From contig NW_025964361.1 in assembly GCF_023055435.1 (NCBI RefSeq), forward strand, positions 47,740,001-47,804,000: a stretch of DNA of 64,000 nucleotides, written 5' to 3'. A program made the translations under genes and the position numbers. This stretch comes from Haliotis rufescens (lineage: Eukaryota). Below are positions 29,716-44,686 of this stretch, one piece after another. A model generated the notes under the pieces. That model had not been told where the DNA came from and searched no databases. It saw only the letters and a list, made by a program, of their open reading frames with translations. Positions within the stretch are counted from its first letter, which is position 1; every line of letters begins with the position of its first letter.

Positions 29716-29833
29716 GATTCTTCAGACGCCAGCGTCCTTCTTCCCCTTCGACTCCGATGGAAGTGTGTACCTTCGCCAGGCTCTCCCCCAAGTGGGGGTC
29801 AGGTTTCTCCTCGTCGATGTTGATCACTTGCAG
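29716..29833 (+). CDS. AASDH: AASDH exon 3
   Basis: tgcag|ILQTPASFFPFDSDG...VRFLLVDVDHLQ|gtgact, phase 2-0 (adenylation A2 region). Confidence 0.88.
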
Positions 29834-31094
29834 GTGACTATCTTCATTGCTCGTTTAGTTGTCTCACACCTTGGTTTATTTGGGGAACAACTAACCTATC
29901 CTCCCGAGGCAAGGACGTTAACTGACTATAAAAGTCCAGTTTCTACCTGTGCCGAACTAGGCTAGAATTATGGAGTTATGTTTTGGCTGGACTACGAGTC
30001 TATGCATAGTCCAGTAAAAAAAACCCATTGTGTATCGAAATCGACATCCTGTTGGTAAACTGCCATGCAGTCGATTGCAGGATTTGCAAAGCATGTGGAC
30101 CGTCAATTTAGCGTCAACATATATATTCCAAATCTTTTCATGTTATTAATCAAGGTGCTCGCGTCATTTGGTGCACTTCTTAAAGTAAGACCCGATTTAT
30201 TACAATAAAGATCTTGATTATCGAGCAGATCGTCTTCAATGTGTTGATCAGTCATCAGCTAACCCTTTACTGTATTTCTTAGCAAGGCTTCTGATAATGG
30301 ATGTAGGTGGAGGTACTGCTACATTCAAGCTAGCTTCATCTTACTGCCAATCACAAAAGAAAAGGCTCAGTCTCATTGCATTCTGCCATTAGAACTAGTC
30401 CATATTACCTACTGTTAGGGAGGATAACTTGAGTTGTGACCTGACAATTGATCCCATATGACTACCATATTTTCTTGAGTTTAGTGCACACTTTTTTTCC
30501 CAAAAAACACAGCTGGGTAGAAGGGGGTGCGCATTATACACACCATAATGAGTTTTGATGTTTTTTCCCCCCAACACAAAGACATTACCGTGAGCACGTA
30601 ACACAGGAAATACCATGTAAAAAATCCATACTGAAGTACGCAAATTAATCATGTAATTACACTGTCTGGTTATAAAAAGTGTTCATTGTGTATCTGGATA
30701 TGTTTGTAACTTATTTCATTAATTTTATTCAAAATTCCTGTATGCCCACTGGCACATACCATTGTGAAGAAAGGGGTAGCAGGTGGTCTGCTACAAGTAG
30801 TGCGAGTCTTGTTAGTTCAATAGCACATTAGAGTACATGCTGATGTGAGGTACCCGATGACTGTGAAAATTTACTTTTTTACCCTAGAGAGCAATAACGA
30901 GTAGTGTCAATGATTGTAAAGGTTGAGACCCTGACGTAGTGATAGCTGACTCAATGACATACTCCTCAATTAATCGCACGTAATTGTTGATGGGGTTTCA
31001 GCATACTGTAAATGTAATATTGCTAGCTGGATATATGTTGAGATAACTGGATAATCATCTCACTAGTCTTCACATTCTGATGCGCTTTAGCATA

Positions 31095-31510
31095 TGTAGC
31101 AGGGCGTGGAGTCATCCCACAGATGACATCCTACCTTGTCAGCTTGCTTTGCTTTGGTCATGTGGACAAGGCGTCCGACCTCGGATCAGAAGGTTCGTGG
31201 TTCGAATCCCATCACGAGACTCGGAAATTTTATGGCCGCTACATTGGCGCCAAACGTAGGGCTGAGCACGTTCATATTAAATTTGAGCAAAATAAGCCTC
31301 AGTACCCTACTATGCAGCCCGGGACGTGCCTTCTGTTGACGGGGGAGTATGTAGCAGGGCGTGGAGTCATCCCACAGATGACATCCTTACCTTGTCAGCT
31401 TGCTGACGGGGTTAACCTCTTTGGTCATGTGGACAAGGCGTCCGACCTCGGATCAGAAGGTCCATGGTTCGCATCCCATCACGGGACTCAGAAATTTTAT
31501 GGCCGCTACA
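31095..31510 (+). mobile_element. TRIM (non-autonomous miniature LTR retrotransposon) with tRNA-Arg-like sequence in its LTRs, Helenus-type
   Basis: LTRs 31095-31243 and 31350-31510 (TGTAGC...GCTACA); PBS TGGCGCCAAACGTAGGG at 31245; PPT GGGGGAG at 31341; flanks CATA/CGTA. Confidence 0.9.
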
Positions 31511-32810
31511 CGTAGATACAGACAGACCCTTGGCAATGCTAGCTTTTGACAATGCTTCAGATATATTGTACAACCTTTCTCCATGTAATTTGTGACATTA
31601 TTGGCCAATTTTCGAGCCTGAGTATGTATGATTTGGCCATGCTTACCTAGCTTTGACATGTTTATTTGTTTGTAATTAACTTCTTTCAAACGACTTGTAG
31701 AGAATTCTGGTATCGACTTGTCACACCAACCTCTGAATAGTCTTATGAAAAACGCATGAATCCATGGGAGTCAATTTCATCGTCATGACCTGCACGTGCA
31801 CAACATGCATACACCCTCTCTACCTGTAACAAACCTAATATGTTTGGCCAAATTCTCTGCACTGCCTACTTGTCTCAAAATCACATTTTGTGAGTTGGTT
31901 TAACTTATCCTGGATTACCATGTGGGTTAAACACAGACTAGTTGAGATCGCAATAAGGTGAAGCTAAGCTGGTGGCATAGAGTAGGTGGATGGATGACAA
32001 CGCTCAGCAAACTTGACGCATGAAAGTTTTAGAGCTTCCATAGCTTTCCATAGATTATTAAAATATATGATGTCGTTCAAAATATCCGACAATCGCTTCC
32101 TGGTTGAGAAGATAATATGAATGCAAAACCTTCTTGTTAGGGCTGGCTATGATAATCGATAATTGGAATTATCATCGATGGGAAGAAATATTATTAATCA
32201 TTGATATGAAACTGTTGTCATTGATAATAACTGACATAAACTATTGTGATGAAATAAAGTTTAGATTAACCGAAACAGACTTATCATTGTCAATAATGTA
32301 ATTATCGATCTCTATGATCTATATCGATAACTTGCACTACTTCTTGTGGCGAAACGTGCTTTAAACCATGATGAGAATGTAATTTGAGTGCACACTAATC
32401 CATTGACTTGGCTAATACTTGTGAAGTGCCACGAACAAGCTTCAGGGTATGGATACAGCACACTATATATCAGTCTCCAAAAAAATTGCCAGCCCGTGGC
32501 TGGTAACTTTTCTGTCGGGCTGCATGAAATTTTCCTCCATCTGCCCGATTATCCGGCAGATAATTTTAAGACTACTTATTATAACTCCTTGTAGATTCTC
32601 AAGTAATTGTTTGCATTAACTAAATCAAGACATGATTTGTCTCTTAGTTTTTGCAATTTTTCAATATTTTTTATGTCTGAATGCGGGCAGATAACTTTAA
32701 AGATGGACAAGCAACACTTATGAATCACCTGCCCGACTGTCTTTTTGGGTTTTGAAATTATTTTGAACACTGCTATATATGCATTTATTATTATTATTAT
32801 TATTATGCAG

Positions 32811-33025
32811 AGACTGGAAGATGTGACCAACACCCTGCATGGAGCTGTGGTACCCTGTATGGAGTTGTTTGAGCTTGGCCTGGTTCTTGTGTCACTGCGG
32901 GATATCTTGCCACGCCCACAAGCCAGCTCATTAGCATACTGCATCACCACGTCGGGGACAACCAGCGTGCCAAAGGTGGTCCGCGTCCCACACAGCTGCA
33001 TCGTGCCCAACATTCAACATCTGAG
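32811..33025 (+). CDS. AASDH: AASDH exon 4 (AMP-binding P-loop)
   Basis: tgcag|RLED...LAYCITTSGTTSVPKVVRVPHSCIVPNIQHLR|gtagga. Confidence 0.95.
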
Positions 33026-34095
33026 GTAGGATATACTGTATATATCATCTGAAGTAGGATATACTGTATATATCATCTGGAGTAGGATACACTGTATACA
33101 ACATCTGAAGTAGGATATACTGTATACAGCATCTGAAGTAGGATATACTGTATACAACATCTGAAGTAGGATATACTGTATACAGCATCTGAAGTAGGAT
33201 ATACTGTATACAGCATCTGAAGTAGGATATACTGTATACAGCATCTGGAGTAGGATACACTGTATACAACATCTGAAGTAGGATATACTGTATACAGCAT
33301 CTGGAGTAGGATATACAGTATACAGCATCTGGAGTAGGATACACTGTATACAACATCTGAAGTAGGATATACTGTATACAACATCTGAAGTAGGATATAC
33401 TGTATACAGCATCTGAAGTAGGATATACTGTATACAGCGTCTGAAGTAGGATATACTGTATACAGCATCTGAAGTAGGATATACTGTATACAACATCTGA
33501 GGTAGGATATACTGTATACAGCATTTGAGGTAGGATATACAGTATACAGCATCTGGAGTAGGATACACTGTATACAACATCTGAAGTAGGATATACTGTA
33601 TACAGCACCTGAAGTAGGATATACTGTATACAGCATCTGAAGTAGGATATACTGTATACAGCATCTGAGGTAGGATATACTGTATACAGCATCTGAGGTA
33701 GGATATACTTTATACAGCATCTGAAGTAGGATATACTGTATGCAGCATCTGAAATAGGATATACTGTATGCAGCATCTTAAGTAGGATATACTGTATACA
33801 GCATCAGAAATAGGATATACTGTATACAGCATCTCAAGTAGGATATACTTCTTGTATCATCTCAAGTAGGAAATACTTCTTGTATCATCTCAAGTAGGAT
33901 ATACTATATAAATATTATCTCAAGTAGGATATACTGTATATGTAATCTCAGGTAGGCTACACTGTATATATCACCTCAAGAAGGAGAAACTGTAAATATC
34001 ATCTGAGGTAGGATATACTGTATATATCATCTGAGGTAGGATATACTGTATATATCATCTGAGGTAGGATATACTGTATATATCATCTGAGGTAG
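33018..34095. repeat. 28-bp minisatellite starting inside AASDH exon 4
   Basis: (CATCTGA(A/G)GTAGGATATACTGTATACAG)n. Confidence 0.97.
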
Positions 34096-43402: not shown

Positions 43403-44686
43403 CGTGGGCTGGCTGAAAAGTTCTAAGCCTAACTGTGAAAGACCCGTACCAAGTCGATGGTTTTCATTTATTTCTCCACATAGTCCCCTTCCAGGTTTAC
43501 ACACTATGCCAGCGATGCTGCAAGGCCTGGATGCCGGTCAAGAAGAAATTTTCTTCAGCCACCCTAAAAAAGTCATTCACAGCGGAAATGACGTCATCAT
43601 TACTCGGAAAATGGCGACCGGCTAGTTCCTTTTTCATTTTGGGAAACAGGTGGAAGTCTGCCGGGGCCAAATCGGGTGAATAAGTGGGATGGTCAATGAG
43701 TTCGAAGCCACAATCATGGATCGCTGACATGGTAACCACTGATTTGTGAACAGGAGCATTGTCTTGGTGGAACAGGACTTCTTTAGTGAGCATTCCCCGT
43801 CGCTTAGCTTTGATAGCTTCACGTAACTGTCTCAGTAGGTCAGCATAATATCTTCCATTGACAGTCTGGCCTTTTTCAAGATAGTCAATCAGCAGAATAC
43901 CCTTGGAATCCCAAAAGACTGAAGCCATCACCTTTCCAGCAGAAGGAACCGACTTGGCTTTTTGGTGGGCTGGTGATTCCATTGTTAAGACTGAATTTTG
44001 GTTTCTGGTTGAAAGTGATGAATCCAGGTCTCATCCATGGTTACAAATCGGGCCAAAAAATCATCACGATCTGCTTCAAAACGGCATAAATGGTCACGGA
44101 ACGTCAGGATTCTGACACGTTTCTGATCTGCTGTCAAGAGCTTTGGCACCCATCTTGCAGAAACTTTTGTCATTCCCAACTCGTTGGTGATAATGTGCTC
44201 AACCCTCTCATGAGAGATGCCCACAACACTGGCAATATGTCGAGTGGTCAATTGTCGATCAGCCATCAACATGTCATGCACCCGTGTAATGTTTTTTTGG
44301 AATGGTTGCTGTTGAAGGCCTTCCTGGACGCGGGTCATCGTCAAGGCTCTCTCTGCCATGCTTGAATTCCGCAGCCCACTTCTTTACAGTGGAAAAGGAA
44401 GGGGCATCATCCCCTAAAGTGGAGACCATGTCAGCATGTATCTGTGTTGGAGTTAGCCCTTTCAGTTGCAGGTACTTGATGACTGCCCTATAGCCAGTTT
44501 TGTCAATTTCTGGTGATTTCAATGGGTAGGTTCACAAGATGGTCTGGTACAAAGACAATAATAACACTACAGTTGCAGTTCTTATGTCTATGATTCATTA
44601 AATGATTTTACTTGTTGGTGGCAAAAGTTTGTTTCAATCCGATTGAGATATCCCATTTAGGCTTAGAACTTTTCAGCCAGCCCTCA
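43403..44686 (-). mobile_element. Full-length mariner (Tc1/mariner, DD34D) transposon
   Basis: TIR (C/T)G(T/A)GGGCTGGCTGAAAAGTTCTAAGCCTA at both ends, TA duplication, ~1.28 kb. Confidence 0.95.
43468..44507 (-). pseudogene. Disrupted mariner transposase
   Basis: Split over ORFs 44274-44522, 43985-44359, 43497-43982: WVPKLL, TMDETW, HQDNAP, YSPDLAPADF, C-terminal GDYVEK*; two frameshifts, a stop at ~43985, start codon apparently ATT. Confidence 0.92.

Follow-up and report, generated by a model that had tools for sequence, protein, structure and literature searches.

A 416-bp sequence inside an intron of an abalone gene carries two LTRs, each of which contains a tRNA-like segment. The locus raises the question of what kind of element this is, how it is transcribed, and which machinery copies and integrates it. 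The answer that we regard as highly probable is a young, Helenus-type TRIM of abalone that is likely transcribed by Pol III from boxes derived from tRNA-Arg, and likely copied and integrated in particles supplied by two or more autonomous Gypsy families.

Structure of the element and its family

The window is the whole stretch of DNA that was analysed, 64,000 nucleotides in length. The element occupies positions 31095–31510 of the forward strand and lies in sense orientation in an intron (29834–32804, +) of a beta-alanine-activating enzyme-like gene. The flanking exons are found at 29717–29833 and 32805–33026, with approximate borders. This multi-exon gene extends over 24616–60888 (+) of the window, its introns are rich in minisatellites, and its last exon is 100% identical to a Haliotis rufescens protein. 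Elsewhere in the window, the reverse strand holds an exon of an alpha-amylase-family gene (1576–2070; PF00128) and a fragment of a Mariner-type transposase (43497–44030; PF01359).

Sequence inspection and the repeat search agree on the organization of the element. A 5′ LTR of 149 bp (31095–31243, +), which is 12 bp short of the 161-bp family LTR, is followed by a non-coding interior of 106 bp (31244–31349, +) and a 3′ LTR of 161 bp (31350–31510, +), and both LTRs start with TGTAGC and end with GCTACA. The interior contains a primer site (PBS) at 31245–31262 (+) that matches the 3′ end of host tRNA-Lys(CTT) plus CCA at 16 of 18 positions, and at 18 of 18 in L002, a typical copy. It ends in the polypurine tract (PPT) GGGGGAGTA at 31341–31349 (+). 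The flanking target-site copies, CATA (31091–31094, +) and CGTA (31511–31514, +), differ by one mismatch, and the target-site duplication (TSD) of the family is 4 bp. The initial annotation, which had described these LTR and interior lengths, the inverted ends, a tRNA-Lys(CTT) primer site, a short PPT and the nearly matching 4-bp flanks, is borne out on each of these points. A typical family copy measures 428 bp. With a length below 1000 bp, two LTRs and no coding region, the element in the window is a TRIM by definition; the window holds its motif twice, and none of 100 shuffles holds it.

The two LTRs of the window copy are 6 substitutions and 12 gap columns apart. These differences fall at sites that segregate among other copies, a pattern suggestive of a recombinant, and for that reason the copy was not dated by LTR divergence. 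This intronic copy counts among the older members of the family and has suffered slight damage.

The family itself is young, multi-copy and dispersed. A search of the abalone's own genome returned 1862 candidates and 59 scored matches, the window counted among them, with identities of 93–95% for the others. Exact pattern searches, which set lower bounds, located at least 749 LTR ends and at least 218 LTR–PBS–interior junctions. Thirty loci were taken for the analysis of insertions; 8 proved to be duplicates of two arrays, 1 was without a scorable end, and the ends of 2 were out of view. The 19 scored insertions are the best matches, and hence biased toward intact copies: 17 have an exact 4-bp TSD, the other two, window included, have one mismatch, and 6 have an identical LTR pair. 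Among 30 of 39 solo-LTR candidates that were examined, the TSD is exact in 22 and has one mismatch in 4, while 4 are not solo LTRs. Tandem arrays exist as well, the largest consisting of 16 LTRs within one TSD, so that the solo LTRs, arrays and consistent TSDs for which the initial annotation had suggested a genome-wide search are all present. A 1403-codon open frame over the 16-LTR array is a stop-free frame of its 267-bp unit, and was taken as a chance occurrence. The family sequence is present in sequencing runs under five species labels, and 14 runs hold at least half of its words. Runs X19 and X20 (share 0.05) are left out of the counts.

Several further arrangements of the LTR were observed. 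At L147 (816–1452, reverse strand), the initial 49 bp of the TRIM LTR are repeated in about 14 tandem units, which are followed by a whole LTR; back-steps of 49 bases are found in contigs from all four DNA runs, and the tandem is a satellite seeded by the TRIM LTR. Tandem units of about 2.25 kb with one TRIM LTR each, comprising about 28 motif matches, occur at L097 (G000:C1:43.92–43.99 Mb), and a comparable spacing, of 7 kb, is located on C2 near 0.37–0.40 Mb. Loci L031 and L033 hold diverged relatives of the TRIM LTR, possibly an older subfamily, with an anticodon arm nearer to that of real tRNA-Arg(TCG). The flanks of L007 (TRIM) and L165 (Gypsy C, see below) display nearly the same 16-bp target at different loci, probably one and the same position within a host repeat.

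The tRNA-like cassette and its transcription

Alignment with a host tRNA-Arg(TCG) gene (L032) gives 49 identical positions out of 69 for copy L002; in the window, 48 of 69 are identical in the 3′ LTR and 44 of 59 in the 5′ LTR. The alignment score is 73, compared with a maximum of 48 over 2000 shuffles, and tRNA-Lys scores 36. Judged from this alignment, the LTR cassette is derived from tRNA-Arg. In the 5′ LTR, the A-box-like motif is located at 31155–31165 (+), the triplet TCG at the anticodon position at 31181–31183 (+), and the B box GGTTCGAATCC at 31199–31209 (+). The tRNA-like part of the 3′ LTR spans about 31415–31489 (+), with its A box at 31422–31432 (+) and a B box carrying one substitution at 31466–31476 (+). 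The initial annotation had quoted a single cassette for each LTR and assigned it to Arg-TCG. The quoted cassette is exact in the 5′ LTR, but the 3′ LTR has other T-arm bases in addition to the B-box substitution; likewise, the tRNA-Arg origin stands, but the TCG triplet is not fixed, as among 90 LTRs, to which one array contributes 16, the anticodon position reads TCG in 32, TCT in 50 and another triplet in 8.

Helenus elements are characterized by two boxes, A (for most families TRGCY...YGG) and B (GGTTC), and the abalone family carries both. Its B box matches exactly, and its A box, TGGTC...TGG, is one base off the TRGCY pattern of PMC10886601. The stems are broken while both boxes keep their tRNA spacing. 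ARAGORN and Rfam each returned zero tRNAs in the element, and the cassette has no cloverleaf, its fold being no better than that of shuffles (z about 0). Conservation of the A and B boxes across the family is not visibly above that of the remainder of the LTR. Two hairpins in U3 (z −1.99, with 9 of 200 shuffles equally good) were judged unpersuasive. Since the cassette matches Arg and the PBS matches Lys, the tRNA-like part is not the primer. The tRNA-Lys(CTT) genes form an array that runs from G000:C79:12.69 Mb onward (L129–L131), with 198 exact motif matches on one strand, and the first 100 matches listed are all on C79, mostly at a spacing of 297 bp. The tRNA-Lys(CTT) of this array is the primer tRNA for the TRIM and for both Gypsy families described below.

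From the retained boxes, and by analogy with Cassandra, we infer that the family is transcribed by Pol III, with initiation predicted near LTR position 59–66. The LTR contains a sole T4 run (31228–31231, +, in the 5′ LTR; 31495–31498, +, in the 3′ LTR), which is a putative leaky Pol III terminator. Because this run lies inside the 5′ LTR, a full-length Pol III RNA requires read-through; the polymerase would partly read past this run and terminate at its counterpart in the 3′ LTR. It could instead be supposed that the tRNA segment is a passenger, and that transcription is carried out by Pol II from the element's own U3 or by read-through of host introns. The imperfect A box, the internal position of the T4 run, and the sense orientation of the intronic window copy are in line with this explanation. 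Three small-RNA libraries yielded 0, 5 and 3 reads on the TRIM and no piled ends; this gives no sign of Pol III activity but does not weigh against a 350-nt RNA, which size selection would miss. RNA-labelled contigs of run X15 may be DNA. We nevertheless consider Pol II transcription unlikely: the boxes are held at tRNA spacing despite the lost stems, only about 65 bp are available upstream of the cassette, and one hybrid junction, a single event, enters the TRIM at LTR position 59–63, beside the predicted Pol III start.

Gypsy partners and hybrid insertions

Gypsy-type elements with the same termini and PBS, which the initial annotation had suggested looking for, were found in two intact families, B and C. 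The search for the PBS followed by a non-TRIM base gave 41 matches, of which 30 were examined, and most of these are element B. Gypsy B is 9.17 kb in length with LTRs of 871 bp, and all seven full-length copies contain a 533-aa gag-like frame and a pol frame of 1371–1391 aa, the latter with RT, RNase H and integrase in the Gypsy order. The LTR pairs are identical in 5 of the 7 copies, and a 4-bp TSD is present in 6. Gypsy C is about 8.9 kb, its pol is 72% identical to that of B, and long frames are found in most of the 9 copies examined. B, C and the TRIM have in common the 18-nt primer site, the terminal bases and a target preference; the half-site AT[GC] stands beside the TSD in 28/78 cases for the TRIM and 12/28 for Gypsy, against a background of 3.8%. 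Homology between the TRIM and B is confined to the PBS and, in the LTRs, to 10 bases at the start and 6 at the end. The TRIM is therefore not a deletion derivative of B, as the interior and LTRs lack homology past the PBS and ends. A third Gypsy has 53–56% amino-acid identity with the integrase region of B and C, and at L194 pieces of it lie between inverted TRIM LTRs within one TSD. A further Lys-primed element is found at L063.

The TRIM is joined to these elements in hybrid insertions. Flank-blind patterns detected 14 junctions in which a B or C LTR, with its own spacer, is followed by the primer site and then by the TRIM interior. Other junction forms bring the total to 16 hybrid loci, three of which (L070, L083 and L085) have lost one end and cannot be scored. 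All 13 hybrids with both ends intact are flanked by one 4-bp TSD, for which the chance match per locus is 0.0048, or about 0.03 given the target bias of the family (our arithmetic). Nine of the 13 have one Gypsy and one TRIM outer end (L081, L082, L084, L086, L087, L088, L175, L040 and L047), and in the remaining 4 both outer ends come from one element. The reciprocal arrangement, in which a TRIM LTR precedes the interior of B or C, has two instances, one from the pattern search and one in L070, compared with 14 in the opposite direction, and both retain the Gypsy spacer. At L069, B sequence is flanked by two identical TRIM LTRs that share 7 private changes, the pattern that a single round of reverse transcription would leave. 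At L040 and L047, an end of C is connected to an inverted TRIM LTR, primer site to primer site, and other hybrid junctions use 5 and 8 shared bases. A 24-bp match to the TRIM interior beside the integrase at L075, first read as a shared 3′ end, marks a hybrid junction at which 8 bases are shared. The sequence shows LTR-type integration and hybrids that entered as single units.

At five loci (L040, L047, L050, L051 and L053), the primer site is extended into a self-complementary end that is followed by an inverted LTR end. The Lys primer site starts with a palindrome, at which fold-back or cross-priming likely gave rise to these extensions. A hybrid flank (L040:1700–2450) resembles, by eye, protein-coding DNA from a larger mobile element, ATPase-like motif included.

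Plus-strand strong-stop DNA consists of the LTR, spacer and primer site, and is transferred by annealing at the primer site. RNAs with the same PBS in one particle would thus yield the commonest hybrid form, and this argues for co-packaging of the TRIM with B, C and perhaps the third Gypsy. In the proposed cycle, TRIM RNA would share a particle with Gypsy RNA and be primed by tRNA-Lys. Gypsy plus-strand strong-stop DNA would then anneal to the minus strand of the TRIM through the PBS that the two have in common, giving a product composed of Gypsy LTR, Gypsy spacer, PBS, TRIM interior and TRIM LTR; alternatively, hybrids could arise when reverse transcriptase jumps at 5–8 nt of shared sequence. 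Gypsy integrase would accept the ends of either element.

The evidence for Gypsy mobilization is genomic, namely the common PBS, ends and target bias and the 13 TSD-flanked hybrids, and it points to at least two, perhaps three, Gypsy families as helpers through co-packaging. The hybrids indicate co-packaging, and do not tell which family is the source of most ordinary copies. The TRIM could accordingly be a Helenus element whose hybrids are by-products of stray RNA in B and C particles, with most copies made by an element outside those found here. Hybrid junctions make up a minor share of all junctions, about 6% (14 vs 218), the third Gypsy is also joined to the TRIM at one TSD-flanked locus, and another Lys-primed element exists among the 30 PBS matches examined out of 41. 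By contrast, when the PBS and TRIM interior were sought behind any LTR with the end TACA and a spacer of 2–8 bases, 13 matches were obtained, of which 12 are B or C, one is the TRIM itself and none belongs to another family; moreover, B and the TRIM are equally young and prefer the same target. We therefore regard the by-product explanation as improbable, and retain mobilization by B and C.

It appears very improbable that the hybrids formed through nested insertion and ectopic recombination on the chromosome, or as products of the assembler. The tandem arrays and solo LTRs imply frequent LTR recombination, and the four hybrids with both outer ends from one element would be compatible with it. 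Recombination between two loci would, however, leave unlike flanks, whereas nine hybrids combine one end of each element within one TSD. In addition, an empty site for L081 was found, with the flanks joined directly in contigs of all four DNA runs from three studies; one of the four runs may be the source of the assembly itself. The empty allele is without the whole 1408-bp hybrid and without one TSD copy. The filled site was not seen among the contigs listed, and the filled allele rests on the assembly.

A local duplication of a tRNA pseudogene, the outcome that the initial annotation expected of a single-copy sequence or of copies lacking PBS, PPT and TSD, or else a SINE dimer, has the tRNA similarity alone in its favour and is refuted for practical purposes: the copies number in the hundreds, are dispersed, and share fixed TG...CA ends, a PBS, a PPT and TSDs of a constant 4 bp. 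A tRNA-derived SINE was rejected on the same fixed ends and constant TSD, as opposed to a 3′ simple-repeat tail and variable TSD.

Relation to Helenus and other TRIMs

Animal Helenus (TRIMp3) was described by Kojima in 2024 as a TRIM with a tRNA-derived LTR segment, PBS, PPT and 4-bp TSD (PMC10886601). Every structural feature of that description is found in the abalone TRIM, in agreement with the initial proposal of a tRNA-carrying, Helenus-type element. The shared features comprise a length below 1 kb, tRNA-derived A and B boxes in two LTRs, PBS, PPT, 4-bp TSD, solo LTRs and arrays. Priming by Lys(CTT) is also found in many bivalve Helenus families, and the LTR and interior sizes are near those of the scallop elements Helenus-1_PeMa (159/105) and Helenus-2_ArIr (160/105) (PMC10886601). 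By eye only, and in the sections of PMC10886601 covered, bivalve and nemertean Helenus share with the abalone family CTTT directly before the A box and a PPT of the GGGGGAGTA type, often with GGG and a short palindrome ahead of CTTT.

The abalone family is not among the Helenus families of PMC10886601, its likeness to the published consensus sequences being judged by eye. It differs from published animal Helenus in its full 18-nt PBS, and its cassette clearly resembles tRNA-Arg; the supplement of PMC10886601, in which line breaks may mask matches, contains no instance of the motif AAGGCGTC. The molluscan hosts given there are pteriomorph bivalves only, and gastropods are missing from Tables 1 and S1. 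That same study infers animal Gypsy helpers from PBS similarity and TSD length only, whereas the abalone helpers are tied to the TRIM by hybrids. It names a sequence-linked partner for one fungal Helenus lineage only, indicates no autonomous partner for Cassandra, and states that how TRIMs maintain dependence on an autonomous element is not known (PMC10886601).

Other TRIMs offer partial parallels. The biv-TRIM of bivalves is likewise molluscan, with solo repeats and tandem arrays, but it lacks a canonical PBS, no partner was found for it, and the portion of PMC6934838 covered describes no tRNA cassette. TRIM–TRIM chimeras and template switching are reported for beet in the covered part of PMC13570524, and 11 of 289 plant TRIM subfamilies are tied to larger elements by similarity (PMC4717578). 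Neither the abalone family nor a partner is named in the covered parts of 10.1101/2023.07.14.548913 and PMC4758252. The openly searchable literature yielded no Helenus from a gastropod, nor any TRIM–helper hybrid in which the TRIM bears a tRNA; Repbase could contain entries that are unpublished. Cassandra and Ajax resemble the abalone TRIM in a Pol III-type promoter within the LTR and in tandem arrays, but carry 5S in place of tRNA, and the TSD of Ajax is 5 bp. Recombinants reportedly link non-autonomous and autonomous elements in the pairs Dasheng/RIRE2 (rice) and SNRE/SARE (soybean, with LTR swapping), which are said to be large elements with homologous LTRs. In contrast, the LTRs of the abalone TRIM and its helpers are unrelated past 6–10 terminal bases, and there is more than one helper.

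As a class, these elements are already published, and the abalone TRIM itself extends the host range. What is added are partners named through hybrids, a TRIM and helpers that are both young, and a use of helpers that looks promiscuous. We think it reasonably likely that this is the first Helenus of a gastropod and the first animal TRIM with a Pol III promoter whose helpers are identified by hybrids, and that it uses two or three Gypsy families without LTR homology, for which a common primer site and a handful of terminal bases would suffice. Should the resemblance seen by eye to families of bivalves and nemerteans be homology, the lineage would be older than the gastropod–bivalve split, or would have been transferred horizontally. 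With hundreds of copies, the tRNA-like LTRs may confuse tRNA annotation, and polymorphic TRIM insertions are usable as markers. Packaging specificity and the Pol III step become directly testable in an aquaculture animal.
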